Assembly (NCBI GenBank): GCA_963727485.1
Contig: CAVSGM010000002.1
Location: forward strand, 1,504,001 to 1,568,000
Origin: an uncultured delta proteobacterium
Lineage (GTDB): Bacteria; Myxococcota; Myxococcia; SLRQ01
Reading direction: 5' to 3'
DNA length: 64,000 nucleotides
The stretch's first letter is position 1; each line of letters opens with the position of its first letter. A program made the translations under genes and the position numbers. The notes below the pieces were generated by a model. The model was not told the DNA's origin. It searched no databases and saw only the letters and a list, made by a program, of their open reading frames with translations. Positions 28,280 to 60,866 of the stretch are shown piece after piece.

Positions 28280-28334
28280 GTCCGTCCCGGGGCCGCCTCG
28301 ACACGGGGACGAGCCCTCGGCGAGACTTGGGCCC

Positions 28335-30251
28335 GTGGACGCCCGACGCGTGGTCACCAACGAGACCTGCAACCAGAACTGCGGGTTCTGTGACGCCCGG
28401 CGTCCCACCGACGACCCGGTGCGCTTCGCCGGGCGCGCGGTGGCGACCCGGGTGGTGGCCGCGGCCCGGGACGGGGGCGAGGTGGTGCTCACCGGCGGCG
28501 AGCCCACCCGGCGCCGGGACCTGCCGTCGCTGGTGGCCCTCGCGCGGCGCGCCGGGGCCCGGCGGGTGATCCTGGAGACCAACGCCGCCCTGGTGGACGA
28601 CGCCCGGGCCTCCGCCCTCGCCGGCGCCGGCCTCGACCTCGCCCGGATCCACCTCCCGGCCACCGGCGCCGCCCTCGACGCCCTGACCCGGGACCCGGGA
28701 GGCTTCGAGGCCACCTGCCGGGGCGCCCGGGCCCTCGCCGACGCCGGGGTGGCCCTGGAGGCGGTGGCCCCCCTGGTGGCGGACAACGCCGCGACCCTCC
28801 CCGGGCTCCCGGCGGCCCTGGTGGACACGGGCCTGCCCTTCGGCGCCCTGCTCCTCCACTACCCCACCACCGGTGCCCCGGACCCGGCCACCCTCCTCGC
28901 CGCCGGCCGGGTCCCCGGGATCGTCGGCGCCGTCCTCGAGGCCGCCGCCGGGGTCGGCCTCCCGGTGCGCCTGGTCGGCGGCCTGGCGCGCCCGGGCCCG
29001 GAGGATCCCCGCCCCGGCGACGGCCCCTGGCAGGACGTCGCCCGGGCCCACCTCGCCGGCCACCCCGAGCGCCGCCTCGCCCTCGGGGCGCTCCTGCCCC
29101 CGGAGGCGCTCCCGGCCATCCGCTGCACCCTCCCCTGGCACCGCCTGGAGGTGAGCACCCGGCGCCTCGCCGGCCCCTGCTGCGCCGACTACCAGGCGCA
29201 CCCCCACCTCGCCCGGGCCCCGGACGTCGCCGCCCTCTGGAACGGCCCCGCCCAGCGCGCCTTCCGCCGGGCCCTCGCCGGCGAGGGCCACCCGGCCACC
29301 TGCCTCTCCACCTGCCCCATCCTCGCCGGCGGGAGCCACACCCCGGACCGCTTCGTCCTCCGGGGGGGCACCGCCGCCTTCGTGGACCACCAAATCGAGG
29401 TCGCCGAGGACCTCCTCGCCGGCCGGGAGACGGTCCGCGGCGGCCCCCTGGAGCTCGAGCTCCCGCCCACCACCTTCTGCAACTACGACTGCCTGATGTG
29501 CGAGTGGGGCGACGAGGGAACCCTCGAGGACGAGCTCCCCGCGGCCTTCTACGCCGGCCTCGCGCCGCTGCTCCCCGGGCTCTCGCGCCTCGAGGCCTCC
29601 GGGGGCGAGCCGCTGGCCTCCCCGGCGTTCCGCGCCTTCCTCGAGGGCCTCGACCGGGCCGCCCTCCCGGACCTGGAGGTGGGGCTGGTGACCAACGGCT
29701 CCTACCTGGCGCCGAAGGTCCTCGACGGGCTGGCCCACGTGCCCTTCTCCACCCTCACCGTGAGCCTCAACGCGGCCACCGCCGGGACCTACGAGACGGT
29801 GAACCGGGGCCTGCCCTTCGCCCGCGCCCGCGCGATCCTCGACGACCTCCTCTCCCGGCGCCGGGCGGGCACCCTCGCCTGCGGCATCACCTACAGCCTG
29901 GTGATCCTCGAGGCCAACCGGCACGAGATCCGCGCCTTCGCCGAGCTCGCCCACCGGGACGGGGTGGACGTGCGCTACATGCTCCCGATGTTCGACCGCA
30001 ACGGTCAGAGCATCATGACCCGGCCCGCGTCCATGGCCGCGGCCCTCGCCAATCTCGACGCGGTGGCCGCCGACCTCGAGGCCCGGGGGGACGCCCACGG
30101 CGCGGCCCTGGCCCGGGGCGAGGCGGACGTCCTTCGGGGGCGCCTCGAGGCGGGTCGGTTCACCCCCCTGCCCGACGGCCGCCACTTGGCCACCGAGCCG
30201 GCACCGGGTCCGACGCCGCGCCCGACCGGGGACGGTCCGTCGACGCCATAG
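28335..30251 (+). CDS. Two-domain radical SAM protein with internal SPASM/twitch-like segment
   Basis: CNQNCGFC + GGEPT; CTLPW...GPCC...CLSTCP; CNYDCLMC + GGEPL. Start codon uncertain. Confidence 0.85.
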   Translation: MDARRVVTNETCNQNCGFCDARRPTDDPVRFAGRAVATRVVAAARDGGEVVLTGGEPTRRRDLPSLVALARRAGARRVILETNAALVDDARASALAGAGLDLARIHLPATGAALDALTRDPGGFEATCRGARALADAGVALEAVAPLVADNAATLPGLPAALVDTGLPFGALLLHYPTTGAPDPATLLAAGRVPGIVGAVLEAAAGVGLPVRLVGGLARPGPEDPRPGDGPWQDVARAHLAGHPERRLALGALLPPEALPAIRCTLPWHRLEVSTRRLAGPCCADYQAHPHLARAPDVAALWNGPAQRAFRRALAGEGHPATCLSTCPILAGGSHTPDRFVLRGGTAAFVDHQIEVAEDLLAGRETVRGGPLELELPPTTFCNYDCLMCEWGDEGTLEDELPAAFYAGLAPLLPGLSRLEASGGEPLASPAFRAFLEGLDRAALPDLEVGLVTNGSYLAPKVLDGLAHVPFSTLTVSLNAATAGTYETVNRGLPFARARAILDDLLSRRRAGTLACGITYSLVILEANRHEIRAFAELAHRDGVDVRYMLPMFDRNGQSIMTRPASMAAALANLDAVAADLEARGDAHGAALARGEADVLRGRLEAGRFTPLPDGRHLATEPAPGPTPRPTGDGPSTP

Positions 30252-30277
30252 GCGGCGGTGCGCTAGGCTGCCGGGCG

Positions 30278-31828
30278 ATGGAGCCGGACACCCAGGTCGA
30301 GATTCAGCTCGGCCACATGTGCAACAACCGCTGCGTGTTCTGCGTGAGCGGCCAGCGCACCCAGATGCGCATGGCCCGGCCCCTCGAGACCGCCCCCATC
30401 CTCGCGCGCATCGAGGCCGCCCGCGCCGAGGGCCACCGGAAGATCACGCTCCTCGGCGGCGAGCCCACCCTCCAGCCGGGCTTCCTCGAGGTGGTACGCC
30501 GCTGCGTGGCGCTGGGCTTCGAGGAGATCGTCATCTTCACCAACGGGGTGAAGATCGCCCGGGCGGCGTTCATCGACGAGGTGCGCGCCACCGGCGGGCG
30601 CTTCAACTGGCGCATCTCCATCCAGGGCGCCACCAAGGAGAGCCACGAGCGCACCACCGGGCGGCCGGGCTCCTTCGACCGCATCGTCGCCGCCATGGGC
30701 CACCTCGCCGAGCGCGGCGAGAAGCTCACGGTGAACATGTGCGTGGTCGGCTCCAACTACGAGAGCGTCGACCACTTCCCCGACCTCCTCGACCGCTTCG
30801 GGGCCCGGCAGCTCCACCTCGACCTGATGCGCCCCCTCGACGCCGGGGAGCGCACCGACGCCGAGCTCGAGGCGATGATGGTCCCCTACTCGCAGATGGT
30901 CGGGCCCCTGACCCGGATGATCGCGGGCTTCCCCGAAGGCTTCGACGTGAACCTGGGGAACCTGCCGTTCTGCATCGCCCCCGAGCTCGCGCCGTACATC
31001 CACCACGACGGCGAGACCACCTACACGGTGGCCATCGAGGGCGACGACCAGCTCTCGCAGCCCTGGGACAAGTACCAGACCAAGCGCCGGGACAAGTTCC
31101 AGCCGGAGACCTGCCGCCCCTGCCTGTTCCGGGAGAAGTGCAGCGGGGTGTTCGAGCACTACGCGCGCTTCCACGGCACCGCCGAGCTGGTCCCGGTGGA
31201 TGCCGCGCGCCTGCGCCGCGCCGACCCCGGCCTGCGCCTGCTGCCGCTCCATCTCAAGCCGGTGATCGCCGGGCTCAAGGGGTTCCGGCCGCCGCCGCCG
31301 TTCACCGGCCTCGCGGCGAAGGAGACCGCCGACGACGAGGTGACCCTCACCCTCACCGGCCCCGAGCCCCTGGAGGTGGCGCTCCGGCGCCCCGGGGAGG
31401 TTGGGATCTGCGCCTTCGAGGGGATGAGCCTCCACCTCCGGGCGGTCCCCGGCGACCTCGCGGTGGCCCGGGCGGGGCTCGAGGCGCTGGTGGCGGCCCT
31501 GGCGGCCACCTGCGGGGCGCCCGTCCACCCCCTGGGCGACGACGCCCTCGCCCCCCTGCCCCGGACGGTGGCGGCGCGGCTGGGCCGCCTCCGGGGCGCC
31601 GCGCCCTTCCCCGGCCTCGCCTGGACCTCGGTGGCCGCCGCCGGGGGCCGGGTGGAGCTTGGCCTCGCGGATGCCGGCGGCGCCGAGCTGGCCTTCTGGC
31701 TCGCCGAGGAGGCCGGGCGGCCCACCGGGGGCTACCGGGTGGTCTCCGGGGCGCCGGCGCCGGCGGCCATCGAGGGCCTCAAGGCGATGATGGCGGCCCT
31801 GCGGCGGCCCCGCGCCGCGGCCGCCTGA
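30278..31828 (+). CDS. Radical SAM protein (HxsC-like) with C-terminal extension
   Basis: CNNRCVFC, GGEPT, NLPFC, CRPCLFREKCSG. Confidence 0.9.
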   Translation: MEPDTQVEIQLGHMCNNRCVFCVSGQRTQMRMARPLETAPILARIEAARAEGHRKITLLGGEPTLQPGFLEVVRRCVALGFEEIVIFTNGVKIARAAFIDEVRATGGRFNWRISIQGATKESHERTTGRPGSFDRIVAAMGHLAERGEKLTVNMCVVGSNYESVDHFPDLLDRFGARQLHLDLMRPLDAGERTDAELEAMMVPYSQMVGPLTRMIAGFPEGFDVNLGNLPFCIAPELAPYIHHDGETTYTVAIEGDDQLSQPWDKYQTKRRDKFQPETCRPCLFREKCSGVFEHYARFHGTAELVPVDAARLRRADPGLRLLPLHLKPVIAGLKGFRPPPPFTGLAAKETADDEVTLTLTGPEPLEVALRRPGEVGICAFEGMSLHLRAVPGDLAVARAGLEALVAALAATCGAPVHPLGDDALAPLPRTVAARLGRLRGAAPFPGLAWTSVAAAGGRVELGLADAGGAELAFWLAEEAGRPTGGYRVVSGAPAPAAIEGLKAMMAALRRPRAAAA

Positions 31829-34213: not shown

Positions 34214-34402
34214 TGGCTCGGGTCAACCCCGGGTTCACCCGTCCCGAGTTTACTTCCCTCCACCAGTAGTCCAAAATCGTATCGCTATTATTGCCCCCCG
34301 GCGTACGGCTTGCCCGGCAGGGGAGGGGATGACGACGGCCGACGGGCGGTCGGCGGTCGGCGGTCGGAACTGGATGCCAGAGCATTGGAGGAGCAGGTCG
34401 GT

Positions 34403-37553: not shown

Positions 37554-39359
37554 ATGAAGGCCCTCATCAAGGTCGGCTACGGGTGCAACGACCACTGCAC
37601 CTTCTGCCACACCCTCGACGTCCGCCATCTCGATGACACCGCCGCCGCGGTCGATCGCAAGATCGACCGGGCGGCGGAGCTGGGCCACACCATGGTGGTG
37701 CTCTCCGGCGGGGAGCCCACCATCCGCCCGGAGCTCTACCGGTGGGCGGGGCGCACGGTGCGCCTGGGCCTCGACTTCGGCCTGGTGACCAACGGGCGGC
37801 TGCTGTCCTACCCCGAGGTGGCCGAGCGCCTCCTCGGGCTGCGCCTCAAGTACGCCTACATCTCGCTCCACGGGGGCACCGCCAAGGTCCACAACGCGGT
37901 GGTGCGCTCCCACGCCTTCGAGGAGAGCTTCGGGGCGTTCAGAAACCTCACCGGGCGGGGCGTGGACCTCACGGCCAACTGCGTGGTCACCAAGGTGAAC
38001 CTCCCGCACCTCCGGGCGCTGGTCGACCTGCTGCTCCCCTACCCCGACGTGACGGTGAAGTTCTCCATGGTCGAGGCCAAGGGGGGCGGCGCGAAGCTCT
38101 TCGACAGCATCGTGCCGAGGGTCGCCGAGGTGGCGGCGGGGGTCCGCGACGCCCTGGCCTACGGTGCCGAGCGCGCCGGACCCGAGGGGGCGCACCGGTT
38201 CACCCACGGCGGCATCCCCCTGTGCCTGATGCAGGGCTACGAAGACCGCTTCGACGACCTGCGCACCGACGGCTTCGCCACCATGACCGAGGTCTGGGAG
38301 CCCGACTTCTTCCCCGTCGACGACCTCAACAAGACCCAGCCGCCGCCGTGCCGCGACTGCGGGCTGCGGGCGGCGTGCCCCGGGCTGTTCACCGGCTACC
38401 TCGAGCGCCACGGCCACGGGGAGCTGAAGCCCACGCCCGGCCTGCGGTCCAACTCCTTCAACTACGTGCCCACCAGGCGGCTCACCTGGCTGGTGGGCAC
38501 GCCGTGCCCGGTGCGCCGGGACGGGGTCACCCCCTACGACCGGGGGCGCTCGGTCTTCGTCCGCGAGGGCGAGACCATGGTCCTCTACGAGACCCGCACC
38601 CGGGACTTCGCCGACCCGGAGATCGACGAGGTCAAGCGCCGGCAGGGGCAGGTGTACCTCGACGTCTCCGACAAGCCCGCCCCCGACGACTTCGCCCGCG
38701 ACCTCAAGAAGCTGGCCCGGGTGGACACCTGCAACACCTGCCCGGTGGAGACGCTGTGCGCCGGGTGCTACCACGCGCTCCCCGACGACGTCTTCCGCCG
38801 GGACGACGCGCTCCTGCGCGAGCGCCTCGAAGCCTTGACCGGCGACGTGCTGGACCTCGGCTGCGGGGACGGGCGCTACGCCGACGTCCTGGCGGAGGCG
38901 GTGGCGGCCGGACGGGTGCGCTACCACGGGGTGGACCCGGACGCGGCGGTGCTGGCGGCCGTGGCCGCGCGGCTCCCTGGCGCCAGGACCAGCTGCGCCC
39001 GGGCCGAGGATCTGGCGCTGGCGCCTGCGAGCTACGACCACGTGCTGCTGCTCCAGAGCTACGACCACCTGGTGGAGCCGGATCAGGTGATCCCCCGGCT
39101 GGTGAAGGCCCTGCGCCCGGGTGGTACCCTCCTGGTGGCCGACAACGTGGCCTTCGGCCTCCTGCGCTCCCCGGGGCAGGCGGCGCGCGCCGAGGCGGGG
39201 CCGGCCCGCTTCGAGCACCATCGCAACCATGACGCCGGGGCGGCGGAGCCGCTGTTCGCCGGCCACCCCCTCACCCTTCTGGCCCGCCGCGACGTGGGCC
39301 CGGGAACCAGCAACCAGTGGTTCCTCCACTACCGACGCCAAGAGGAAGCCGCATGCTAG
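37554..39359 (+). CDS. Radical SAM (HxsC-like) fused to class I SAM-dependent methyltransferase
   Basis: CNDHCTFC, GGEPT, GIPLC, CRDCGLRAACPG, CNTCPVETLC; VLDLGCGDGRY, LRPGGTLLV. Confidence 0.9.
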   Translation: MKALIKVGYGCNDHCTFCHTLDVRHLDDTAAAVDRKIDRAAELGHTMVVLSGGEPTIRPELYRWAGRTVRLGLDFGLVTNGRLLSYPEVAERLLGLRLKYAYISLHGGTAKVHNAVVRSHAFEESFGAFRNLTGRGVDLTANCVVTKVNLPHLRALVDLLLPYPDVTVKFSMVEAKGGGAKLFDSIVPRVAEVAAGVRDALAYGAERAGPEGAHRFTHGGIPLCLMQGYEDRFDDLRTDGFATMTEVWEPDFFPVDDLNKTQPPPCRDCGLRAACPGLFTGYLERHGHGELKPTPGLRSNSFNYVPTRRLTWLVGTPCPVRRDGVTPYDRGRSVFVREGETMVLYETRTRDFADPEIDEVKRRQGQVYLDVSDKPAPDDFARDLKKLARVDTCNTCPVETLCAGCYHALPDDVFRRDDALLRERLEALTGDVLDLGCGDGRYADVLAEAVAAGRVRYHGVDPDAAVLAAVAARLPGARTSCARAEDLALAPASYDHVLLLQSYDHLVEPDQVIPRLVKALRPGGTLLVADNVAFGLLRSPGQAARAEAGPARFEHHRNHDAGAAEPLFAGHPLTLLARRDVGPGTSNQWFLHYRRQEEAAC

Positions 39360-41023
39360 AGGCCGACGCCACCTTCGACGCCGAAGGCCAGAAGATCGCC
39401 GAGAAGGAGTCCGCGGCGCACGAGAAGCGCGCCTGGATCCGGCTGACGAGCTACTGCAACAACCGCTGCACCTTCTGCCTCGACTCGGCGGCCCACAACG
39501 GGACCTACGTGCCCCGGCTCAACATCCGCTCCCAGATCATCGACGGGCGGCGCAAGGGCGCCACGCGGCTGATCCTCTCCGGGGGCGAGCCCACCATCCA
39601 CCCCAACTACGTGGAGTTCATCAAGCTCGGGCGGCAGCTGGGGTACCGGAAGATCCAGACGGTCACCAACGGCCGGCTCTTCTCCTACGACGACTTCATC
39701 GGCAAGTGCCTCGACGCCGGGCTCTCGGAGATCACGTTTTCCATCCACGGCCACAACGCCAAGGTCCACGACGCCCTGGTGGGGGTGAAGGGTGCCTTCG
39801 ACGAGGAGGTCGAGGGGCTGAAGAAGGCGCTGGCCGACGGCCGGCCCATCGTCAACGTCGACGTCTGCCTCAACAAGGGCAACGTCCGGAACCTCCCCGA
39901 GCTCCTCGACATGTTCATGGAGATCGGCGTGCGCGAGTTCGACCTGCTCCACCTCATCCCCTTCGGGCGGGCCTACGAGGAGGGGCGCAACTCGCTGTTC
40001 TACGACATCGACGAGGCGATGCCCGCGATCCAGCACGCCCTCGAGCTCTCCAAGCGCCCGGACGTGCACATCTGGTTCAACCGCTTCCCGCCGCCGTACC
40101 TCGAGGGCCACGAGCACCTGATCCAGGACCCCTACAAGCTCAACGACGAGGTCCGCGGCCGCTACGAGGAGTACGAGCGGTGGCTGGAGCACGGGGTGCC
40201 CCTCTCGTGCCGCGAGCCCGACCGGTGCAACCGCTGCTACCTCCAGAACCTCTGCGACACCCTCGAGGGGAAGATGGCGACGCAGAAGGACGACCGGTTC
40301 GAGCTGATCCGGGTGCACGCGGGCGCCGCCGGCACGGACGTGGAGCTGCCGAAGCTCACCGGCACCTACGCCGGGAGCTGGCTGTGTGCCCCGGACGTGG
40401 CCGCCGCCAAGGCGCTGGCGGGCCGGCTCCCGGGCGACGAGCTCACCCTGGAGCTCGAGGACTACGACGGCCTCGCCGAGGCCCTGGGCGACGGGAAGCT
40501 TTCGGGCAAGAAGCTGGTGCGCGCCTACGCCGCGCGGCCCGAGGACGTCGAGGCGCTGCTCGCCCTCGAGGGCGATCATGAGGTCGTCGCCTGGCTCAAC
40601 CAGGCCAACGTGGCGGCGCTGTTGGAGAAGGGCACCGAGGCGCCGGCGCGCCTCGCCCTCTCGGGCCGGAACTACGAGCGGCTCACCGAGGCGTCCGAGC
40701 AGGACCCGGACCTCAAGGCCTTCTTCGCCGCCTACGACAAGGCGGTGCCGGTGGAGGACGTCCCCGCGTGCATCAGCGGCCGAGCGCCGCGCGCCCGCCC
40801 CGAGGTCCTCGACGCCTCCATGCTCCAGCCCGGTGGGCGCCTGGACATCTACGGCTACGCCAAGCGCTACATCCTCGACCACTACTACACCAAGAGCCAT
40901 AGGTGCCGCGGCTGCGCCCACTTCGAGGGCTGCGCCGGGGCGCACATCAACTGGGTGCGCGCCCACGGGTACCAGACCCTGGTGCCGGTCCCCGGCGAGC
41001 CGGCGAAGCAGGCGGCGGGGTAG
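39353..41023 (+). CDS. Radical SAM protein (HxsC-like) with extra Cys clusters
   Basis: CNNRCTFC, GGEPT, VTNGR, CREPDRCNRCYLQNLC, CRGCAHFEGCAG. Confidence 0.9.
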   Translation: MLEADATFDAEGQKIAEKESAAHEKRAWIRLTSYCNNRCTFCLDSAAHNGTYVPRLNIRSQIIDGRRKGATRLILSGGEPTIHPNYVEFIKLGRQLGYRKIQTVTNGRLFSYDDFIGKCLDAGLSEITFSIHGHNAKVHDALVGVKGAFDEEVEGLKKALADGRPIVNVDVCLNKGNVRNLPELLDMFMEIGVREFDLLHLIPFGRAYEEGRNSLFYDIDEAMPAIQHALELSKRPDVHIWFNRFPPPYLEGHEHLIQDPYKLNDEVRGRYEEYERWLEHGVPLSCREPDRCNRCYLQNLCDTLEGKMATQKDDRFELIRVHAGAAGTDVELPKLTGTYAGSWLCAPDVAAAKALAGRLPGDELTLELEDYDGLAEALGDGKLSGKKLVRAYAARPEDVEALLALEGDHEVVAWLNQANVAALLEKGTEAPARLALSGRNYERLTEASEQDPDLKAFFAAYDKAVPVEDVPACISGRAPRARPEVLDASMLQPGGRLDIYGYAKRYILDHYYTKSHRCRGCAHFEGCAGAHINWVRAHGYQTLVPVPGEPAKQAAG

Positions 41024-46188: not shown

Positions 46189-47435
46189 ATGACCCCTCCT
46201 GCCCGGGCCGGCCGCGCCGGCGCTGCGACCCCGCGACATCACCCTCCCCGAGCCCGGATCCACCACCGCCCGGGAGGTCCTCTCCCGGGCCATCCGGGCG
46301 GTCCTCGGCGACCTGGTGCGCCTCCCGCCGTCGATGTGCCTGACCCCGGCCGGGCGCCGGAGCGCCGAGGGGCTCCAGGCCGCCGTCCGGGCCGCGGCGC
46401 GCCGGCACCCCGGGGCCCTGGCGAGCCTGGTCCGGGACCCCACCGCCGGCGCCCTGGTCCGGGTGCTCCGGGAGCGGCGCGACGGCGAGGGGGATCCGGA
46501 ACGGATCGATCCCCTCTACGGCGAGCTCGCCTGCGTCCTCGGCCTGGGGCTGGCCCGGGCCGGCGCCCTCGAGGCGCCGCTCACCTGCGCCCCGGCCCCG
46601 GCGCGGATCCTCTCCCTGACCCTGCGCCTCTCGCTGCCGCTCCCCGAGGGGACCCGGGCGGTGACCTTCGATCCCACCGGCGCCGTCACCGCCGAGACCG
46701 GCGCCGGCCCGGTGCCGGTGGACCTGTCGACGGCCACCGACCCCTACCACCCCCTCGACGCCGACAGCGTGCTGGCCACCGCCGACAACAACCCCCTGGC
46801 GATGTTCGAGCTCCACCCCGACAAGTCGGGCAACGCCCTGGACCTCGGGGGCCGGGACCCGGCCGAGTGGGTGGCGACGCTCCGGGAGGCCCTCGACCTG
46901 GTCGAGGCCCACCTCCCCGACGCTCCGGGAGGAGATGCGCCTCTTCGTCCGGCAGGTGGTCCCGGTGGGCTATGACGCCGAGCGCCACCTCTCGGCGAGC
47001 TACCAGGAGGCCATCGGCACCCTCTACCTGACCCTCCACCCCCAGCTGATGACCATGACCGAGGCGCTCATCCACGAGTTCAGCCACAACAAGCTCGGCG
47101 CGCTGCTGGAGCTGGACCCGCTGTTGGAGAACGCCTTCCACCCCCTCTACAAGAGCCCGGTGCGCCCGGACCCGAGGCCCCTGCACGGGGTGCTCCTCGC
47201 GGTCCACGCCTTCCAGCCGGTGGCGCGGCTCTACGAGCGGATGATCGAGGCGGACCACCCGCGGGCCCGGTCGGCGGACTTCCGCCGGCGCTACCAGCAG
47301 ATCCTCGCCACCAACCGCGAGGGCGCCGAGACCGTGCTCACCCACGGCGTGCCCACCGAGGTGGGGGCGGCGGTCCTCGACGAGATCCGCCGCTGGGACG
47401 ACCACTATCGGGGCGCCATCTCGTCCCAGCCGTAG
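46189..47435 (+). CDS. aKG-HExxH-type peptide-modifying protein (HEXXH motif domain); frameshifts near 46205 and 46918
   Basis: EALIHEFSHNKL...SPVRPDPRPLHGVLLAVHAF, the signature of HExxH domains associated with radical SAM RiPP systems. Confidence 0.85.
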
Positions 47436-48457
47436 CGGGCGAGGTAGTTCTTCCACACCCCCTCGCACACGGCGTCGTAGCGGCAGGTGGCGCACTCGGG
47501 GCGCTTGGCGCGCTCCACCGCGTCGAGGTCGGACCGGCGCACCTCGAGGAGCTCGGCGTCGCCCCCCTCGGCGAGCGCGTGGGCGCTGGCGGCGTTCGCC
47601 GGGGCCGCGGGATCGGCGACCTCGTAGTGCTTGTAGCGCTCCACGTAGCCCCGGTTGCGATCGGGGATCCCCTCGGTGACGCACAGGGGGATGTCGACGA
47701 GGTAGGCCTGGAGGTCGTCGTCGCCGGCGGCGGCGGCCTCGGCGCAGAAGGCCCGGAACCGGTCGGCGATGTCGGTGTACCGGGGGAAGAGCTGGTCGAA
47801 GTAGGTGTTCGCCCGGCCGTTGGCCTGCATCACGTTGAACACCACCTGGTCGACGCCGTGGCCCCGGAGGAACCGGTAGATGTCGGCGAAGTGCTCGAGG
47901 TTGCGCCGGGTGACCACCGTGGAGGTGTGGAGGCTGACCCCGTGGCGCTTGAGCCTCGCCACGTTGTCCAGGCCCTTCACCGTCTGGACGAAGGCGCCGG
48001 GGGTGCGCACCAGGCCGTCGTGGAGCTTCTTGGTGTGCCCGTGGATGGACACGTAGAAGAAGTTCATCCCCGCCTTCACCAAGGTGGCCAGGTAGGGCAG
48101 GTGCGAGAGGCGCCGGCCGTTGGTCATCACGCTGATGCGCCGGTAGCCGAGCGCCCGGGCCCAGGTGCAGTACTGGGGCAGGCCCCGGACCAGGGTGGGC
48201 TCACCGGAGGTGAAGCAGACCTCCTCGGCGCCGGCGTTGGCCTCGAGGATGTGGCGGATCCGCTCGGGGGTGAGCGCCCCGTTGACCTCCTCCCGGAGCG
48301 CGCGGTCCTCCTCCATGCAGAAGATGCAGTTGTTGTTGCACACGGGCCCGAGGTTGATGTGGACCCGCTCCACGCGCCCCTCGATGCGGCCCGCCACCGA
48401 CGCCTCGGGGGCGAGGGGGACGGGGGCCTGCTGGAGGATGGGGAGGCGCTCGGCCAT
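47405..48457 (-). CDS. Radical SAM protein (HxsC-like)
   Basis: CNNNCIFC, TSGEPT, MTNGRR, DIPLC, CATCRYDAVCEG. Confidence 0.9.
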   Translation of the reverse strand: MAERLPILQQAPVPLAPEASVAGRIEGRVERVHINLGPVCNNNCIFCMEEDRALREEVNGALTPERIRHILEANAGAEEVCFTSGEPTLVRGLPQYCTWARALGYRRISVMTNGRRLSHLPYLATLVKAGMNFFYVSIHGHTKKLHDGLVRTPGAFVQTVKGLDNVARLKRHGVSLHTSTVVTRRNLEHFADIYRFLRGHGVDQVVFNVMQANGRANTYFDQLFPRYTDIADRFRAFCAEAAAAGDDDLQAYLVDIPLCVTEGIPDRNRGYVERYKHYEVADPAAPANAASAHALAEGGDAELLEVRRSDLDAVERAKRPECATCRYDAVCEGVWKNYLARYGWDEMAPR

Positions 48458-48598: not shown

Positions 48599-49180
48599 AT
48601 GAAGAAGGTCGATCGTCGCGACGCCCTGAAGTTCCTCGGTCTTGGCATCCTGGCCGCCGGGAGCGCTCCGCTCCTCGGCGCCCGGCGCGCCGCCGCCGAG
48701 CCCCGGCTCCCCCGGGCCGGCCGCGGGACGCCCAAGGCCACCGTCTCCCGGGACGGCGCCGCCCCGGCGGTCCGCGCTCCCCTCGACACCCCGGTGCCCG
48801 CCGACCCCACCTCGGCCCTGGCGCCGCTGGGCGTCGGCAGCCGCCTCGCCGGCTCGACCATCCTCCGCGTCGACGGCCCCGACCACGGCGCCATCCACGT
48901 GGACCTGCGGGCGGCCGACGGCCACACCTTCCGGGTGGAGATCTGCCGCCACGACGCCGGGGGCCCGGCGCCGGTGACCCGCACCCGTCACTACGACCTC
49001 TTCCTCGCCAACGGCGGCCGCGGGGACAAGCGCACCGACCGGTCCGAGGGCCTGGCGGTCCTGGGGCTCACCGAGGCGCTGCGCCACAACGAGGCGCGCG
49101 CCCGGAAGCTGCCGGTGATGACCATGCGCCGCCGGTGGGCGAGCTTCCGGCCCACCGAGCTCTCCCGCTACGACGGGTAG
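48599..49180 (+). CDS. Tat-exported hypothetical protein
   Basis: MKKVDRRDALKFLGLG twin-arginine signal with AxA-type cleavage; GGAGG ribosome-binding site upstream. Confidence 0.75.
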   Translation: MKKVDRRDALKFLGLGILAAGSAPLLGARRAAAEPRLPRAGRGTPKATVSRDGAAPAVRAPLDTPVPADPTSALAPLGVGSRLAGSTILRVDGPDHGAIHVDLRAADGHTFRVEICRHDAGGPAPVTRTRHYDLFLANGGRGDKRTDRSEGLAVLGLTEALRHNEARARKLPVMTMRRRWASFRPTELSRYDG

Positions 49181-49183: not shown

Positions 49184-50170
49184 TTGAGCGCATCCGCCGC
49201 GGTACCCGACCCTCCGGTCTCGCCGGGGGGTCGCTTGCGCCTGCACCTGGGCTACCGGTGCAACAACCGCTGCGTGTTCTGCGCCCAGGGGGACCTGCGC
49301 CGAGGCGAGGCCGCGCCCCCGGATGACGCCACGGTGGCCGCCCGCCTCGCCGCCGGCCGGGCCGCGGGCCTCGAGGCGGTGGCCTTCGTGGGCGGCGAGC
49401 CCACCGTCCACGACGGGCTCCCCGGGTGGATCGCCGAGGCCCGGCGCCAGGGCTTCACCTCGGTGCTCGTCCAGACCAATGGCCGGCGGCTGGCCTACCC
49501 CGGCTACGCCGCCGCCCTCGCCGAGGCGGGCCTGGAGGCGGTGGAGGTGTCCCTCCACGGGCCCACCGAGGCGATCCACGGCTACCACACCCGGGTTCCC
49601 GGGAGCTTCGCCCACACGGCGCGGGGCCTCGGCGCCGCCCGGTCCGCGGGCCTCACGCTGGCCCTGACCTGCGTGTCTCACCCGCTCGAACTTCCGCCAC
49701 CTCCCGGAAATGGTCCGCCTCGCCGGCCGCGCCCGGGCCGCGGCCCTCCACCTGGCCCTGCCCCGGGTCCGGGGGCAGGCGGCGACCGGCTTCGATCGGG
49801 TGGTGCCCCGCCTCGGCCTCCTGCGCCCCTACCTCGCCGCCGCCGCCCGCCTCGCCTGCGACCCTGCGCGTCCCCCTGGTCCTCGGGGGCCTGCCGCTCT
49901 GCGCCGCCGCCGCCGCCCCGGGGGCGGTGCGCCTCGAGGTCGCCGACGCCGGGGGCGCCTTCGGCCCCGGCTGCGACGGCTGCCCGGTGCGGGGCGCCTG
50001 CCCCGGCGTCGACCCCGCCTACGCCGCCGTCCACGGCACCGCCGAGCTCACCCCCGTGGCCGACGGCCACCGAGCCCGCCTCCCCGGCGCTGGCCCGGCA
50101 CTTCGCCGGCACCGGCCCCATGGCCGATGCGGCCGAGGGGCCTGCGGTACACTCGGCCGAAGGCTCCTGA
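49184..50170 (+). CDS. Radical SAM protein (HxsC-like), about three apparent frameshifts between 49670 and 50075
   Basis: CNNRCVFC, GGEPT, QTNGRR; GLPLC and CDGCPVRGACPG appear in other frames. Confidence 0.78.
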   Translation: MSASAAVPDPPVSPGGRLRLHLGYRCNNRCVFCAQGDLRRGEAAPPDDATVAARLAAGRAAGLEAVAFVGGEPTVHDGLPGWIAEARRQGFTSVLVQTNGRRLAYPGYAAALAEAGLEAVEVSLHGPTEAIHGYHTRVPGSFAHTARGLGAARSAGLTLALTCVSHPLELPPPPGNGPPRRPRPGRGPPPGPAPGPGAGGDRLRSGGAPPRPPAPLPRRRRPPRLRPCASPWSSGACRSAPPPPPRGRCASRSPTPGAPSAPAATAARCGAPAPASTPPTPPSTAPPSSPPWPTATEPASPALARHFAGTGPMADAAEGPAVHSAEGS

Positions 50171-51401
50171 TGGCGAACATCGGCTACATCCAGGTCGTCC
50201 GGCACTGCAACCACTTCTGCGGGTTCTGCTCCAACCCCACCACCCCCTACAGCCACACCTTCGAGTCGATGAAGGTCCTGGTGGACGACTTCGTGGCCCG
50301 GGGCTACTTCGGGGTGATCCTCACCGGCGGCGAGCCCAGCCTCCACCCGGACCTCCCGCGGATCTGCGCCTACGCCCGGGAGCCGGCCTCCACGTGCGGA
50401 TGATCACCAACGGCTCGCGGATGGCCGACCCGGCGTTCGCCCGGGAGATGGCCGACGCCGGGCTCCAGCTCGCCCACGTCTCGGTGTACTCGGTGCGCCC
50501 CGAGGTCGAGGCGCGCCTGCGCGGGATCCCCGGGACCCTGCCCAAGGCCTTCGCCGCGGTGGACAACCTCGTCGCCAGCGGCGTCGAGGTGAACATCAAC
50601 TGCGTCATCAACAAGCTCAACGCCGACCACCTCGACGAGAACATCCGCTACTGGACCGCCCACCACCCGGCGATCCGCCACTTCGTGTGGAACAACCTCG
50701 ACCCCTCGATGGGCCGCGCGGAGGTGAACCAGGACCAGTTCACCCCCCGGCTCGCCGACTTCGAGGTGTCGCTGGCCCGGGCGCTCTCGCTGCTCCAGAA
50801 GACCGGGCGCACCTTCCGGGTGGAGAAGGTGCCGCTTTGCTACATGGTCGACTTCGCCTGGGCGAGCACCGAGACCCGGAAGATCGTCAAGGGTGAGGAG
50901 CGCATCGTCCACTTCCTCGACGTGAAGCAGACCGTGCGCCAGACCCACTGGGAGCACGTCTACAGCGAGGCCTGCGACGTCTGCTCGCTGCGGACCATCT
51001 GCGGCGGGCTCTTCGACCGGGGCGACGCCTACGACCCCGCCGAGCTCCACCCGGTGTTCGTGGACCGGGACCAGGTGGTGCGCCGGATCATCGAGGACGC
51101 CGGGGACCCGAGCTACGCCCTCCGGGACCTCGAGGCCTGGCGCGACGACTTCGACCGACGCCTCGCCGACGCCCGGACCGAGGCGGGGAGCGCGCACGCG
51201 CCGGCCGGGGACCTGCCGCCACCCTCGATGCGCGATCCCGGGGCCCCGGCGGTGGGCCAGATCACCGAGGAGAGCCGCAAGCGCTTCGAGGCCAAGCGCC
51301 GCGCCGAGGGGCGCCGGGCGGAGAAGGTCGGGGTGCGCCTCGAGCGCCTGGCGATCCAGGCGCCCGAGCTCGCCGAGGGCGACGGCGAGGCGGGCGACTG
51401 A
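50170..51401 (+). CDS. Radical SAM protein (HxsC-like), one frameshift near 50382
   Basis: [46 protein letters not shown]. Confidence 0.88.
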
Positions 51402-51485
51402 GGCCGCGCCGCCCGGATGCACGTCGGCCGGACCGCCTTGGGGGCAGCCCGGCCGAAGGGGTTGCGGGGTCGGCTGCGGGGTCGG

Positions 51486-51803
51486 CTACCAGGACCCGTG
51501 GGACCCGTGCGAGCCGTGGGACCCGTGCGACCCATGCGAGCCGTGCGAGCCGTGGGACCCGTGCGAGCCGTGGGACCCGTGGGAGCCGTGCGACCCGTGG
51601 GAGCCGTGCGAGCCGTGGGAGCCGTGCGAGCCGTGGGAGCCGTGCGACCCGTGGGAGACGTGCTGCGCCAGCAGGCGCCCGCCACCCGGGACCTCACCCG
51701 CCTCGGTCGCGGACGCGGCCTCCTTGGACGAATCCTTCAGCTCGTGCTCCAGCTCGGAGAGCAAACCCTTGGAGCGCTTCTTGTACTTGGGAATCTTTGC
51801 CAT
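51486..51803 (-). CDS. hxsA: His-Xaa-Ser repeat precursor peptide (HxsA-like): 47-aa leader + HVS-(HGS)18-W
   Basis: Direct translation; AAGGGG ribosome-binding site; lies immediately downstream of hxsB. Confidence 0.93.
51492..51662 (-). repeat. 19 tandem 9-bp units encoding His-Xaa-Ser
   Basis: Units CAY-GGS-TCS (first unit CAC-GTC-TCC). Variation among the HGS units is synonymous only. Confidence 0.95.
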
Positions 51804-51828
51804 GAACGGCCCCTTGACGTTCCAGCCC

Positions 51829-53356
51829 CTACGACTCTGCCGGCGACTCTACCACGTCGTCTGCAGGGTCGGAAGTGTGAAGGAAGTGGTCCCGGGGACG
51901 GTTGGTGGTCCACCTACGGAAGACCTCCAGGGTCCCGGGGTCGGCCTCGCCGAGCTTCCCGAAGAGGTAGTCCTGGATGCCCTTGATCGCGTGGCACCAG
52001 GCGCTGTCGCGCATCCGACCGCCCAGGCTCCCCTGGTGCCGGTAGTTGTACTCCGGGGAGATCCCACAGAACGGGTGGTAGGCGCAGTTCACGCAGTCGG
52101 GGCTCGAGTCGAGGATCGAGGCGAGGGTCACCGCCCGGGTGGTCTCGTGCTCCATGAGCGCCTGGTAGCTCGAGGTGTCCACGTGGCCGATGTGGAACAT
52201 GTCGTCCCCCATCTCGTGGAGCATCCGGCCCTCGTCGCTGGTGAAGATGAGCCCGTCGTAGTTGTAGGCGAGCCCGCCGATGCCGGCGCCCGCAGGGGTT
52301 GCGCAGATCGAGGAAGTTCGGGTCCTCGCCGCCGAGGATCTTGGTGAGGAGGATGGCGGCGTAGCGCTCCAGGATCTGGGTGCCCTGGAGGTTGAGCTGC
52401 ACCATGTAGTCGACCGCCTCGGCGTAGAAGTCGAGGTAGGCCCGGCGGTCGTAGTCGACCTTCTGCCCGGTCTTGGCGGCGAAGCCGAAGGGATCGACCG
52501 GGCGGAGGAAGAGGGCCCGGCACCCGAGCTCGACGTAGGTGTCGACAATCTCGCGCGGGTACTTCAGCGCCTCCTTGGTGGTCGTGAGCAGCGCCTCCAC
52601 GTGGTAGAGCGTGGTGTCGAGGCCGCGCTCGGCGTAGGCCTCGTTGATGCGCTTGATCCACTTGGTGGCATGCGAGAAGGCGTCGCCGCCGGGGAGGATC
52701 CGCTGCTTGTTGTGCAGGTGCTTGGGCCCGTCCACCGAGGTGCACATCTGCACCTTGTTGTCGAGGAGGTAGTCGAGCTTCTCCTCGGTCATCAGCGACA
52801 TGTTGGTCACCAGGGTGAACTCGAGGCTCTTGCCGAGGGTCTCGTTCTTCTTCTTGGCGTACTCGATGATGTGCTGCATCACCGGGTAGTTCACCAACGG
52901 CTCGCCGCCCTGGAACTCGAGGGTGACCCAGGGGCTGGTGGTCTCGAAGGCGAGATCCACCATCTTCTCCGCGGTCTCCTTGGACATGTCGGTCTGCGTC
53001 GCCTCCATGCCGGCGCGGCTGGCGTGGCAGTAGACGCAGGTCTCGTTGCACCGCAGGGTGACCACGGCGATGTGGAGGTTGGGGCCGTAGTGCAGGAAGC
53101 GCTGGCGGGCGGCCAGCCGCTGGGCCAGGTCGTCCACGTCGACCTCGGCCCGGAGGAAGTTCTTCTCCTTGAGGGCCTGATAGGTCTCGGAGGTCGGGTC
53201 CAGGCTCCCGTCCACGAAGGCCCGGAACTCCGCGGGCTCGAGGAGGTGGAACTGGCCCACCTGGTTGGTGACCAGGTAGCGCTCCCCCACCACCCGGTAG
53301 CGGAAGAAGGCGGGGAACGCCGGGTCGATCTGCTCCACCTGGGCGAGCTGCCTCAC
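51829..53356 (-). CDS. hxsB: His-Xaa-Ser system radical SAM/SPASM maturase HxsB (+1 frameshift near 52290)
   Basis: [36 protein letters not shown]...YNYDG...[19 protein letters not shown]-terminal RRE-like region; adjacent to the HxS precursor. Confidence 0.9.
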
Positions 53357-53574
53357 TGGCCCCCCCGCTTCTCTTCGATGGTGAGCGCCAGGGCGTAGTT
53401 GCCGAACTCGCCGGCGACCTCGTCCTCGTCGGCGTCGTCCTTGGCGGTCAAGGCAATCTCGAAGTAGGGCATCTTCTGGGTGGAGGCGATCTCGGCGACC
53501 TCGTCGAAGACCTCGGCGGTGGTCTCGAGGGCGGCGGCCGAGTAGGCCTGGTGGTGGAAGCGCAGGTGCCGCAC
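53353..53574 (-). CDS. HxsD-like small protein
   Basis: F...YS..AL...EFGNYAL pattern resembles the upstream HxsD; its stop overlaps the hxsB GTG. Confidence 0.72.
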
Positions 53575-53577: not shown

Positions 53578-54102
53578 TCAGCCCCCCGCCGCCTGGTCGT
53601 CGCCACCGTCCGCCGGGGGCGGGCCCTTGGGCGCACCCTCCTTGGGGGCCTCGGCCTCGCCCTGCTTGCCGTACTTCTCCTCCCAGCTCATGGCGATGCC
53701 GAGGGGATCCTCGAAGGCGTCGTCGGAGAAGTCCATGTCGCCGGCGAGGTCGTCGAGGCTGGCGGTGCCGGTGGCCCCGGCGAGCGCCTGGGCGGCCACC
53801 GCCTCGATGATCGGCTTGTTGTACTCGGTGATCTCCCGGCGCCAGGCCTGGGACAGGAGCTCGTTGGCGAACTCCCCGGCGAGCGCCGAGAGGTCGTCGG
53901 CGGAGAGGGCCTCGCGCCCCCGGAGCACCACCTGCACGTGGGTCTCGTCGGGCACGTCGAGGAGGACGTAGCACCGGTCGATGAACACGTAGGCGGCGCC
54001 GTAGATGGCGTCGAGGGGGTAGAGGCTGCGCTCGAAGCGCACCTGCACCCGGTTGTCGTCGGCTTCGACCTGGATCTGGTCGAGCCCCTGGTCCTTGTCC
54101 AC
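53578..54102 (-). CDS. hxsD: His-Xaa-Ser system protein HxsD
   Basis: [19 protein letters not shown]...[16 protein letters not shown]...[10 protein letters not shown]; operon position. Confidence 0.82.
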
Positions 54103-56773: not shown

Positions 56774-57042
56774 TCCGGCTTCGGGTCAGTCGGTGTAGGC
56801 CACCGCGACCCAGCGCCCGTACTTCTTCTTGAAAACGGCGACGTAGCCGTGTCCGCCGAGGTCGGCGATGGCCACCCAGGCGTCCTTCAGGTCCAGCTTG
56901 CCGAGGCGGGCCGGCGGCGGGCCGTACTGCTGGACCATGGCGTCGGCCGGGAGCGTCTTCATCCCGTAGAGGGGCAGGCGGGAGAAGTCCTTGCCCTGGA
57001 AGAGCTCGGTGAGCAACTCGTCGACGGTGGGGCCGTCGCCGT

Positions 57043-58223: not shown

Positions 58224-60530
58224 CTAGATTGCGGCGTTGACGTCGTCCTCGGTGAACTCCCACGGCAGCTCCTTGGAGGCCTTCAGCTCGTAGAACCCGC
58301 CGCAGAAGATCTTGTGGGGGCACGCCTCGCACTCCTCGTGATGGCTGCGCTGCGCCTTGAGGTACTCGAAGAGGTTCACGTCGGTGTTGTTCACGAACAC
58401 CATGTGCCGCTCGAGCTTGAGCAGGTCGCCCATCATGAACCGCTCGTAGCCGGGCATGAAGCAGAACGGGAGGTTGATGACCTGGAACTTCATCTTCCCC
58501 TCCCACCGGTCGATGACCGACATGGCCACCTTCGCCGCCGCGGCGGTGTCGGGGTTGACGAACACCGTGGCCCGGCCGAAGGGGGTGAGGAACTGGAGGT
58601 TCATCCACCGCAGCCCCAGGTCCCAGGCGAGCTCGGCCATGGCCGGCAGGTGGGCGTAGTTGCTCTTGGTGACGGTGACGTTCATCCCCAGCTCGACCCC
58701 CAGGGGCCGGTGCTTCACCGCGTGGCGGACCCCGGCGCAGGTCTGCTCGAAGGCCTCGGCGACGCCCACGTTCTGGGCGTGGGTCCTCGCGTCGTGGCCG
58801 TGGATCGAGAAGAGCAGGGTGGTCAGCCCCGAGCGCGTAAGGCTCCGGGCGAAGTCCTCGTAGACCAGGCGCCGGCCGTTGGTGGTGACGTTGATGCGCC
58901 GGTAGCCCAGGGCCCGGGCGTGGCGCACCAGGGGGATGATCTCCTCGTAGAGGGTGGGCTCGCCGCCGTCGAAGTCGACGAGATCGAGGCCCTGGGCCCG
59001 GTAGCGGGCGAGGATCTTCTTCTGGTTCTCGAAGCTCCCGTCGAGCTGGGTCCGGGTGCCCACCGCACAGAAGGTGCAGCGGTTGTTGCACCGGTAGGTG
59101 ACGTTCATGATCACCTTCCGCGGCCCGCGGCCCGCCTCCAGGCGCCGGTCGAAGGTCCACTTGAAGCGGCGGAGCTCCTCGGCGGTGAAGTCCTCGGAGG
59201 TGGTCACCGGGGTGTGCTGGAAGAGCGGCCCGAAGTCGTCGACCACCGGCAGGGGGGTCTTCGCCGCGGCGGCGGCGGTGTCGGCGAGGCGGGTGCCCGG
59301 CAGGGGCGTGGCGAACTGCACCCCGGGCCAGGCGCCGTAGGCCTCGTGGAGGTGCAGGGCCCAGTCGAGGGTGGTGTTGATCTGGGCCTTGGTCTCCCCG
59401 GGCATCCCGATGATGAAGTGGACCAGGGTGGGGATCCCGCGCGCGGCGGCGCCGGCGACCGTCTCCTCGACCCGGGCGAGGTCGAGGTTCTTGCCCACCA
59501 CCCGGTCGACCACGCCCTGGTCGCCGCTCTCGGCGGAGACCGAGAGGGTGGCCACGTGGCCGGCCATGGCGTCGAGGTGCGCCTCGGCCACCCAGTCGGC
59601 GCGCATCCCGTTGGGGAAGTCGAAGGCGAGGTCGTGGGGGGCGAGGGCGGCGAGGAGGGCCTCGAAGTGGCCCGGGTCGACGTTGACCATCTCGTCGAGG
59701 ACGTCGAGGCGGGTGGCGCCGTGCTCCCGGACCAGGGCGTCGACCGCCCGCGCCAGGTAGGCGGCGTCGTACCGGCGCTGGGTCTTCTTCTTCCCCTGGC
59801 GGCCGGGGTTCGAGGAGCAGTGGGCGCACCGGTAGGGGCAGCCCCGGCTGGAGACCATCGGCAGGGTCCGCCCGTCCACCGGGAAGGCCCAGGGCCCGCG
59901 ACCCAGGCCCGCGACCACCCGGGCGAGGAAGGCGTCCCGGGCGGGCAGATCGACCAGGTCCCAGGCGGGCAGCGGCAGGGCCGAGAGGGCGTCCACCTCG
60001 CCGCCGACCACGGTCTCGGGGACCTCGGGGCGGCCGCCGTCGAGGAGGCGCTGGAGGAGGGGCACCAGGGCCTCCTCGGCCTCGTACTTGAGGAGGGCGT
60101 CGACCTCGGGGTAGCTCGCCAGGGTCCCCTGGCCCGGCGCCTCCACGTAGTGCTGCCCGCTCTGGTAGAGGTCGGCGAGGACCACCGGCGCCTCCGGGAG
60201 GCGCGCCCGGAGACCCTCGAGGAGGGCCCCGAGGAGGGGATCGCGCCGGGGCGGGCGGTGGAACGGCGTGAGGGTGACCACCACCGCGTCGGGGGTGCCG
60301 AGGGCCCCGAGGACCTCGTCGAGGCCCGCGCCGAGGCGGACCCTGTCGCCGTCGAGGTCCTCGAGGGTGCTCCCGGGGAGGGCGAAGGCGTCGAGGAGGC
60401 GCACCTCGAGGCCCGCCTCCCGGATCACCGCCGCCGCCTGCGCCCCGGCGAGGTCGCAGTGGTAGGGGTAGTCGATGAAGTCCCGGGAGAGCCGGAGCGG
60501 CGGCTGGACGACGAGGACCCGAGGGGTCAT
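58224..60530 (-). CDS. B12-binding-type radical SAM domain fused to a second HxsC-like radical SAM domain
   Basis: RVLVVQPP, YEAEE, LPLPAWDL, SRGCPYRCAHC, SAESG, FIIGMPGET; then CNNRCTFC, GGEPT, NLPFC, CEACPHKIFCGG. Start may be 60554. Confidence 0.88.
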   Translation of the reverse strand: MTPRVLVVQPPLRLSRDFIDYPYHCDLAGAQAAAVIREAGLEVRLLDAFALPGSTLEDLDGDRVRLGAGLDEVLGALGTPDAVVVTLTPFHRPPRRDPLLGALLEGLRARLPEAPVVLADLYQSGQHYVEAPGQGTLASYPEVDALLKYEAEEALVPLLQRLLDGGRPEVPETVVGGEVDALSALPLPAWDLVDLPARDAFLARVVAGLGRGPWAFPVDGRTLPMVSSRGCPYRCAHCSSNPGRQGKKKTQRRYDAAYLARAVDALVREHGATRLDVLDEMVNVDPGHFEALLAALAPHDLAFDFPNGMRADWVAEAHLDAMAGHVATLSVSAESGDQGVVDRVVGKNLDLARVEETVAGAAARGIPTLVHFIIGMPGETKAQINTTLDWALHLHEAYGAWPGVQFATPLPGTRLADTAAAAAKTPLPVVDDFGPLFQHTPVTTSEDFTAEELRRFKWTFDRRLEAGRGPRKVIMNVTYRCNNRCTFCAVGTRTQLDGSFENQKKILARYRAQGLDLVDFDGGEPTLYEEIIPLVRHARALGYRRINVTTNGRRLVYEDFARSLTRSGLTTLLFSIHGHDARTHAQNVGVAEAFEQTCAGVRHAVKHRPLGVELGMNVTVTKSNYAHLPAMAELAWDLGLRWMNLQFLTPFGRATVFVNPDTAAAAKVAMSVIDRWEGKMKFQVINLPFCFMPGYERFMMGDLLKLERHMVFVNNTDVNLFEYLKAQRSHHEECEACPHKIFCGGFYELKASKELPWEFTEDDVNAAI

Positions 60531-60566: not shown

Positions 60567-60866
60567 ATGAGCGACCCCACGCCCCGCGACCGTCTCGCCC
60601 GCCTCATCCGCCCTCTGCCCGTGGACGGACCGTTCCTCAAGCAGTGGCGGGTGGGCGCCGTCGAGGGCGACGCCGAGGGGCTGAAGGTGACCCTCGACCA
60701 CCCGACCTACGGCCCGGTGGCCCTCGAGATCGCCCGGGCCTCCGGCGCCCCGGCCTTCGCCCGGACCAACCACTTCGAGGTGCGCCATGGCGCCGGCGGG
60801 CTCACCGAGCGGCAGCAGGACGCGGTGCGGACCCTGGTCCGGGCGATCCTCGCAAACGGGATGTGA
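60567..60866 (+). CDS. Small hypothetical protein (stand-alone copy of the recurring beta-sheet/helix module)
   Basis: MSDPTPRDRL...AFARTNHFEVRHG...AVRTLVRAILANGM; codon usage fits the rest of the window. Confidence 0.65.
   Translation: MSDPTPRDRLARLIRPLPVDGPFLKQWRVGAVEGDAEGLKVTLDHPTYGPVALEIARASGAPAFARTNHFEVRHGAGGLTERQQDAVRTLVRAILANGM

Follow-up and report, generated by a model that had tools for sequence, protein, structure and literature searches.

We found that the window, by which we mean the whole stretch of 64,000 nucleotides analysed here, carries on its minus strand a precursor gene, hxsA4 (51486..51803). Its 105-aa product matches the HxsA4 family model NF038313 at 120.5 bits (cut-off 55) and stays under the cut-offs of the HxsA2 (24 vs 48 bits) and HxsA3 (17 vs 65 bits) models. 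The product consists of a 47-aa leader (51663-51803), with six K/R within residues 1-12 and acidic thereafter, which ends GGGRLLAQ, and of a core of the form HVS-(HGS)18-W (51489-51662), for which the assembly gives 19 unbroken HxS triplets and a terminal Trp, with 19 His and no K/R in 58 aa. This translation bears out an earlier sequence-only reading of the gene as regards the basic-then-acidic leader and its end, the triplets and the Trp. The leader motif LP-F-K...L...E...AQ|H is common to 37 aligned homologs. A Shine-Dalgarno-like AAGGGG (51810..51815, minus strand) lies 6 nt before the ATG, and a G+C-rich 14-bp hairpin (51424..51456) sits between the converging 3' ends of hxsA4 and a plus-strand radical SAM gene. 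The hairpin (z -2.85; equally good folds in 2 of 200 shuffles; without a U-run) is a possible transcript end and was not called by the terminator scan, while the promoter scan returned no match. In a six-frame scan of the genome (5.55 Mb; G+C 73%), hxsA4 is the sole run of at least three HxS triplets. An antisense ORF (51417-51986) was considered as the true gene and ruled out, since families and homologs favour the minus strand.

When the repeat units were compared with each other, we observed 18 departures from the majority 9-bp unit, including one CAT, with 18 of 18 at third codon positions and none at positions 1-2; exact internal repeats reach 35 nt at most. The Ser codons of the array are TCC and TCG only, despite the use of AGC for 50 of the 159 Ser codons across nine genes of the window, and the array was therefore probably expanded from one unit with synonymous drift after. 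Over 133 homologous arrays we counted 296 identical pairs of adjacent units, where 439 would be expected; the corresponding figure for the hxsA4 array alone is 2 of 17 against 3.5 expected (P=0.27). The sequence-only reading had noted that the units differ only synonymously, as is the case, and had attributed this to selection on the peptide and not slippage. The synonymous substitutions and the shortage of identical neighbours support the part about selection, but the length varies freely between genomes and the array appears to have expanded from one unit, which goes against setting slippage aside. These patterns indicate that slippage sets the array length and selection maintains the peptide.

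HxsA4, HxsB, HxsD, an HxsD-like protein and HxsC4 all score over curated cut-offs and are encoded within 7 kb. In minus-strand order the genes are hxsD (53578..54102; TIGR03976, 60.8 bits vs a cut-off of 50), the HxsD-like gene (53353..53574; NF038315, 58.4 vs 41), whose stop overlaps the hxsB start (GTGA), the radical SAM/SPASM maturase gene hxsB (51829..53356; TIGR03978, 385 bits vs 370, plus 148 bits in a second frame), and hxsA4 last. The radical SAM gene hxsC4 (47405..48451, also minus; NF038332, 546.7 bits vs 500) lies 3 kb from hxsA4. The scores of HxsA4, HxsB and HxsD agree with the RiPP-type precursor beside HxsB and HxsD that had been implied earlier and, by these models, hxsA4 is a catalogued HxsA4-family member in an expanded, uncharacterised Hxs system. 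We found no mention of the names HxsA4 and HxsC4 in the literature searched; the description of the His-x-Ser motif is credited to Haft and Basu in the available text of PMC9062424. An aKG-HExxH-type peptide hydroxylase gene, lying in two frames on the plus strand (46316..47435; TIGR04267, 92.3 bits vs 40), is present in 2 of 5 genomes and 4 of 37 loci, a distribution by which it is accessory and not core.

The assembly sequence of hxsB has one extra base at 52293/4, which splits the frame. This base is missing from a 206-nt contig of one run, which has no substitution, and from a 766-nt contig that a different study obtained from a close relative, so that the break is an assembly error; contigs from two runs and two studies thereby rule out hxsB as a pseudogene for this break. 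At least five frame breaks occur across 46.3-53.4 kb, of which only that of hxsB is shown to be an error, the four further ones, in neighbour genes, having been seen against intact orthologs. Because frame changes are rarer elsewhere (2 of 26 gene-sized matches), this block may be partly decayed. Contig C1 carries another hxsB (G000:C1:650825-653223, L032), which is intact, lies away from hxsA4 and is followed by an HxsC-like gene. This copy has all its SPASM cysteines, including three that the hxsA4-adjacent copy has lost; the SPASM cysteine pattern varies among 34 HxsB proteins. In the HxsB tree, the C1 copy is nearest to the HxsB of the relative G003 and the hxsA4-adjacent copy pairs with that of the relative G002.

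The HxsC-like radical SAM suite

We counted 19 CxxxCxxC motifs in the window, 16 of them in radical SAM context (14 by a stricter rule). On the plus strand beside hxsA4 are two HxsC-like radical SAM genes, one with two frame breaks (49184..50150) and one with a single break near 50380 (50170..51401). The latter is 70-89% identical in two frames to an intact G002 ortholog; its break is likely an assembly error, and it has orthologs in 9 of the 37 full-length named loci. Further genes of this type are found at 30236..31828 (plus; 53-57% orthologs in G001 and G002) and 39317..41023 (plus; 48-70% orthologs in G001, G002, G003 and G048), together with a fusion of an HxsC-like radical SAM domain and a SAM-methyltransferase at 37554..39359 (plus; 51-64% orthologs in five relatives, 18 of 80 named loci) and a fusion of B12-type and HxsC-like radical SAM domains at 58224..60530 (minus; 55-68% orthologs in five relatives). 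Overall, the radical SAM genes at 30-61 kb have 48-70% identical orthologs in relatives, and those at 12-30 kb have no orthologs among the relatives' loci compared.

Directly upstream of the methyltransferase fusion, a gene at 34310-37537 encodes a 1075-aa secreted protein with an SdrD-B/carboxypeptidase-regulatory-like domain, whose orthologs in G001, G002 and G003 sit at similar loci. The lineage-specific block at 12284-30251 holds further radical SAM genes, three of them with two motifs or fused domains, as well as UbiA prenyltransferase, membrane glycosyltransferase-like and two flavin halogenase-like genes, likewise without orthologs among the relatives' loci compared, and may be a separate pathway. 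The halogenase-like genes (14938-16470, minus; 18575-20791, plus) were considered for tailoring of the core His or Trp, a role that is not supported, as neither was found in the relatives' loci compared; the one at 18575-20791 was not found in 300 other genomes at E<=1e-60 among the best 3 candidates per genome. Left of the radical SAM block are an ATP-grasp gene (6990-8219) and M16/PqqF-like peptidase genes (8321-11441), the second of which is split over two frames. A broken IS91/ISCR-like transposase gene (56786-57756) lies between the ABC transporter region and the B12-type fusion, and a secreted lipoprotein-like protein (56132-56773) matches Laminin B (domain IV) at 58.9 bits.

When partitioning the genomes by taxonomic level, we find that of 61 genomes at the level of the class, five carry HxsA4 over cut-off and give 7-12 HxsC4-like matches each, one other (85% complete) gives a single match and the remaining 55 give none. 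Among 301 phylum genomes, in which at most 6 HxsC4-like matches were scored per genome and kin are not independent, HxsA4 over cut-off is present in 27 and a suite of at least three HxsC4-like matches in 29, with both in 26 and neither in 271; of the 27 HxsA4 genomes, 26 thus also carry the suite. In two of the three genomes with the suite alone, HxsA4 matches below cut-off are found next to radical SAM genes, and the sole HxsA4 match without the suite falls in a frame of 481 aa. The distribution is patchy, with the pair turning up in at least seven families. At the level of single loci, the neighbours of hxsA4 are syntenic within the family, hxsB is within 10 kb of hxsA4 in 18 of 37 full-length loci, and 14 of the 37 have no radical SAM motif within that distance.

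Array length, leader classes and export

The homolog set comprised 146 loci, at least 121 from a pattern scan of the genome collection and 25 from another search, which yielded at least 97 different precursors that are free of gaps and have a stop upstream. Among the matches listed (97), the number of triplets per precursor ranges from 5 to 64 with a median of 15, and 9 have at least 19. At least 90% of the triplets are HGS in 69 of the 97 precursors listed, a share that is overstated, since the pattern behind most loci demanded three HGS and a W and so favours pure arrays. The triplet types among the matches listed are HGS (1903), HCS (92) and HAS (62), with His and Ser invariant, and the first triplet is mostly HCS in these homologs, whereas it is HVS here. 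Family-level relatives have 21, 25 and at least 19 triplets (the last interrupted by an assembly gap); in a class-level relative two hxsA4 paralogs, of 35 and 59 triplets, stand in tandem (L001 / L030, G048:C104:65350-66700). The sequence-only reading had described an exceptionally long, pure core and had proposed comparing repeat number among homologs as a check; by that comparison 19 triplets are ordinary and, as the product is typical of its family, the headline does not stand. Tandem hxsA4 pairs were also seen in L087 and L091.

A protein search extended the family beyond this phylum, with source names among the best 120 of 147 hits including HxsA4 in Omnitrophota and Elusimicrobiales, and with a mixed middle residue (G/A/S) in the HxS triplets of those of the best 120 hits that lie outside Myxococcota. 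One HxS-repeat homolog, a hypothetical protein (P0081), is named from a Diapherotrites archaeon, so that the HxsA4-type family may reach archaea. A locus titled as a Klebsiella pneumoniae MAG (L084) has a precursor near-identical in type to the deltaproteobacterial ones, and its label is probably wrong. Cultured carriers of hxsA4 are Chondromyces apiculatus DSM 436 and Nannocystis exedens DSM 71.

HxsA4-type leaders form two classes, with or without a hydrophobic segment, and many of the former have a twin-arginine motif, which makes export a family trait. The leader of the hxsA4 studied here has no hydrophobic segment (13-residue hydropathy maximum 0.05). The window also encodes a 193-aa Tat-signal protein (48599..49180, plus strand), a candidate export carrier to which we refer as the companion, with RR and a hydrophobic stretch in 23 of 29 homologs. 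Its 120-residue domain belongs to no Pfam or NCBIfam family, and the Atlas gave only leads below 0.9 (MucB/RseB C-terminal). With the best 14 candidates per genome scored, the companion was found in 10 of the 301 phylum genomes, all with the suite. They comprise 8 of the 8 genomes whose leader is signal-less and 2 of the 18 whose leader bears a signal. The profile was trained on one leader class, and its alignment contains 4 of the 8 positive genomes as rows, with two further positives apparently identical to rows. In ten further genomes chosen by leader class it was present in 5 of 5 signal-less and 0 of 5 signal-bearing ones, giving 13 of 13 against 2 of 23 overall, a difference that is confounded by kinship. 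All 10 matches are in the window's class and the pattern follows taxonomy; two genomes carry both a signal-bearing leader and the companion. TatC is present in the genome, and hitchhiking through Tat exists (PMC4273604, available text). The pattern of leaders and companions suggests hitchhiker export by Tat, and a signal-less leader with a companion would constitute a testable carrier-based Tat route for a ribosomal peptide.

A 99-aa ORF (60567..60866, plus strand) without a signal peptide resembles the companion domain (hhalign probability 86.9, E 4.2e-6, 86 columns) and has no homolog in the loci compared. That the domain is a repeated module on suite enzymes was rejected, as profile iteration stays at 29 hits, none of them fused to radical SAM, and a cluster-encoded prepilin-type leader peptidase was ruled out, both A24 genes being far from the cluster. 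An MsbA-like ABC exporter gene (54245-56028), divergent from hxsD, was not found in the relatives' loci compared, and its product is therefore probably not the peptide's exporter.

Comparison with known systems

According to the available text of Li et al. 2026 (PMC13128918), 99.7% of the HXS system is in Pseudomonadota, and modification in E. coli needs HxsB, HxsC and HxsD, with HxsC binding HxsD in an HxsC-HxsD core; HxsBCD process the N terminus of HxsA and add 8 Da (+C -4H) at a single SHRSS motif, the one Hxs modification that has been measured. The same text describes mature HxsA as a periplasmic protein that attaches to DNA and slows the entry of phage DNA, attributes anchoring and DNA binding to the peptidoglycan-binding domain, signal peptide and basic residues, reports that the repeats remain in the mature protein and that each is needed for defence, and states that even for E. 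coli the radical chemistry of His-x-Ser repeats has yet to be solved. By arithmetic, +C -4H equals CH2 minus 6H, i.e. one methylation and three losses of 2H, or a bridging carbon and two, and is thus compatible with crosslinks plus methylation. The serial -2 Da shifts expected in the sequence-only reading are at odds with this gain of 8 Da. As in E. coli, the system described here has a substrate in which HxS repeats follow a leader, and it encodes HxsB, HxsD and HxsC-related enzymes. Unlike E. coli HxsA, the hxsA4 product has no signal peptide and no peptidoglycan-binding domain, and its units are 19 neutral HGS in place of five basic ones. The best TIGR03977 (HxsC) score in the window is 109 against a cut-off of 268, the gene order is D, D-like, B, A4 in contrast to hxsD-hxsB-hxsC-hxsA, and there are a dozen or more radical SAM domains compared with two. 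The present system is scattered in Myxococcota and others, whereas the E. coli type is almost wholly in Pseudomonadota. PADLOC (2023 library) gave no match for the hxsA4 product, HxsD or the companion.

Triceptides carry ring-to-C-beta(i+2) bonds formed by specific enzyme families (PMC11002830), His C2 is bonded to Ser C-beta within an H-A-S motif of minviopeptin (PMC12912966), and HExxH enzymes act on RiPP precursors by hydroxylation or cleavage (PMC12636437), each according to the text available. The locus has in common with the triceptide systems (HaaB, YhhB, MscB, MicB) the aromatic-X-X motif, here 19 H-x-S, and an aKG-HExxH neighbour, but its maturase is of the HxsB family instead. Intact HxsB orthologs score 45-62 bits on cyclophane-forming families (GrrM/OscB, YhhB and AmcB models; cut-offs 310-445) and 92-120 bits on nif11 and thioether-type maturases, far below cut-off for all but the HxsB model. 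HxsC4 scores 37 bits on the GrrM/OscB model, and the best solved relative of HxsB is 5wgg (74 bits), with ChlB at 29 bits. The triceptide idea of the sequence-only reading thus holds up in so far as an Hxs substrate is likely and a His-Ser bond has a precedent, and loses ground on the low scores of HxsB on triceptide families; its set of hxsA, hxsB and hxsD also leaves out the HxsC-like suite. By analogy, His-Ser cyclophanes on HxsA4 are plausible. The hxsA4 system probably operates along the lines of HXS, with radical maturation guided by the leader, export and action at the envelope, but on the features tested it fails membership of both the canonical anti-phage HXS systems and the triceptides. 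From catalogued HxsA4 relatives, this member differs by its signal-less leader, its HVS start and two genomic hxsB copies; the window adds two things, a signal-less leader that is paired with a Tat-signal companion and a suite that comes with no nitrogenase-like reductase.

Loci of the Group VI nitrogenase-like enzymes with radical SAM suites have been described by Meheust et al. (10.1101/765248), who propose that Group VI makes a cofactor, with a tetrapyrrole as the proposed substrate; the word 'peptide' is absent from the main text as available. Group VI is devoid of characterised members according to a 2026 review (PMC13474568), which likewise proposes a tetrapyrrole substrate and in whose available text 'Hxs', 'His-Xaa-Ser' and 'RiPP' are absent, and no paper joining Group VI and Hxs was found in the literature searched, subscription papers aside. 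The present locus shares with these loci a large radical SAM suite with B12-type fusions, and Myxococcota as host, but NflH/NflD/NflK-type genes were not found in this genome; neither PF00142 nor PF00148 was found in it (93% complete) or in G002. In the relatives G001, G003 and G048 there are two to three NifH-like genes together with NifD/K-like genes, some beside hxsA4 or hxsB. A NifH-family match occurs in 61 of the 301 phylum genomes, and 18 of these 61 belong to a divergent NifH-like class, picked by score band and profile start. All 18 have the suite, and 11 of the 29 suite genomes are without such a gene; G269, which has no suite, has two low-scoring NifH-family hits that were left outside the divergent class tally. 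A NifH-like gene lies 4-40 kb from hxsA4 in 10 genomes, and none was found in the two cultured carriers. The G001 copy is below the cut-offs of NifH, CfbC, BchL and BchX. In a NifH tree with no published Group VI reference among its rows, 14 of 25 rows group with three copies from a groundwater Elusimicrobia genome (SH-aLRT 84, subclade 95). The relatives' NifH-like genes appear to resemble Group VI, and their co-occurrence with HxsA4 would offer Group VI enzymes a candidate substrate.

Proposed pathway and rival explanations

We give a probability of about one half to the reading in which HxsA4 is a precursor that is serially modified by HxsB and the HxsC-like suite, loses its leader and is exported to act at the envelope. 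The conserved leader would very probably dock on HxsB/HxsD, with the core beginning at AQ|H. The chemistry would be mixed, with oxidative His-to-Ser(i+2) links on some or many triplets and one-carbon additions, at odds that we put slightly short of even; the methyltransferase fusion and the B12-type enzyme encoded in the cluster bear on the one-carbon additions. Somewhat more tentative is the export step, in which the peptide would pass through Tat by hitchhiking on the companion. Held with similar reserve is the form of the product, which by analogy with mature E. coli HxsA could be a rigid multivalent periplasmic His array of tunable length that hinders phage DNA entry. An anti-phage barrier role is possibly shared with the E. 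coli relative, but the system looks chromosomal and scattered, unlike a defence island.

The strongest rival holds that the His-Gly-Ser unit, or the first triplet with the terminal Trp, is built by a long enzyme line into a small cofactor-like or signalling molecule and cut out by a protease, with repeat number setting the yield. This would suit the free repeat number (5-64 among the matches listed), the use of at least 10 different enzymes for a three-residue unit, the scattered and vertically kept genes and the M16/PqqF-like peptidase at 8321-11441, and the nitrogenase-like reductase genes near hxsA4 in 10 genomes would accord with the cofactor proposal for Group VI (10.1101/765248, available text). 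It is nonetheless unlikely, as the E. coli repeats persist in the mature protein (PMC13128918, available text), the search for nitrogenase-like genes came up empty in 11 of the 29 genomes with the suite, this one included, no conserved protease is among the families shared by loci, and the many precursors with export signals accord with a chain exported intact. Lower still we place a uniform poly-cyclophane rod of the triceptide kind, in which HxsB alone would install up to 19 His-Ser cyclophanes. The aromatic-X-X spacing, in which His and Ser never vary and the residue between them is small, the His C2-Ser C-beta precedent (PMC12912966, available text) and the aKG-HExxH gene in the cluster agree with such a rod. 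The HxsB scores (45-62 bits on cyclophane families vs 92-120 on thioether-type/nif11 maturases) do not, and the HExxH gene is in only 4 of 37 loci. In addition, the E. coli change is +8 Da and needs HxsC, the words 'cyclo' and 'cross' are absent from the review file of PMC13128918 as available, and the HxsC-like suite would be left unexplained.

That the array is mainly a scaffold or store for Ni, Cu or Zn, with a Gly-periodic polyglycine-II or collagen-like chain presenting His on one face, we regard as improbable. The 19 His in 58 residues and the HCS that is usual as first triplet among the matches listed would fit it, as would Atlas collagen-labelled clusters in Myxococcota (weak, with a low recognition score) and the Pfam match to Collagen (38 bits). 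The latter is the sole Pfam match of the product and is explained by the Gly period alone. Metal binding requires neither strict H-x-S nor obligatory maturases. The metal-binding scaffold of the sequence-only reading draws no support from gene context, as no metal transporter, chaperone or metalloregulator is among the families shared by at least 3 of 95 loci (best 45 clusters); metal binding may accompany the other models. Finally, indel errors nearby in the assembly could point to an assembly artefact or a slippage microsatellite without a protein product, which the in-frame and synonymous-only variation, the conserved leader, the Shine-Dalgarno-like sequence, the operon position and more than 100 homologs refute for the gene, leaving this reading with a negligible share.

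The preferred reading of a serially modified and exported precursor has a bolder form, which we consider doubtful. Here HxsA4 would be the substrate of one of the largest radical SAM assembly lines, yielding an envelope polymer of unfixed length that is crosslinked and methylated and that, in signal-less lineages, a dedicated Tat-signal companion of a new family would carry out as a hitchhiker, and the orphan Group VI reductase of the relatives would tailor the same peptide and not a tetrapyrrole. If so, this genome, without the reductase, would be a natural minus-reductase control. A leader followed by a pure (HGS)n core would be the simplest substrate for solving the His-x-Ser radical chemistry.
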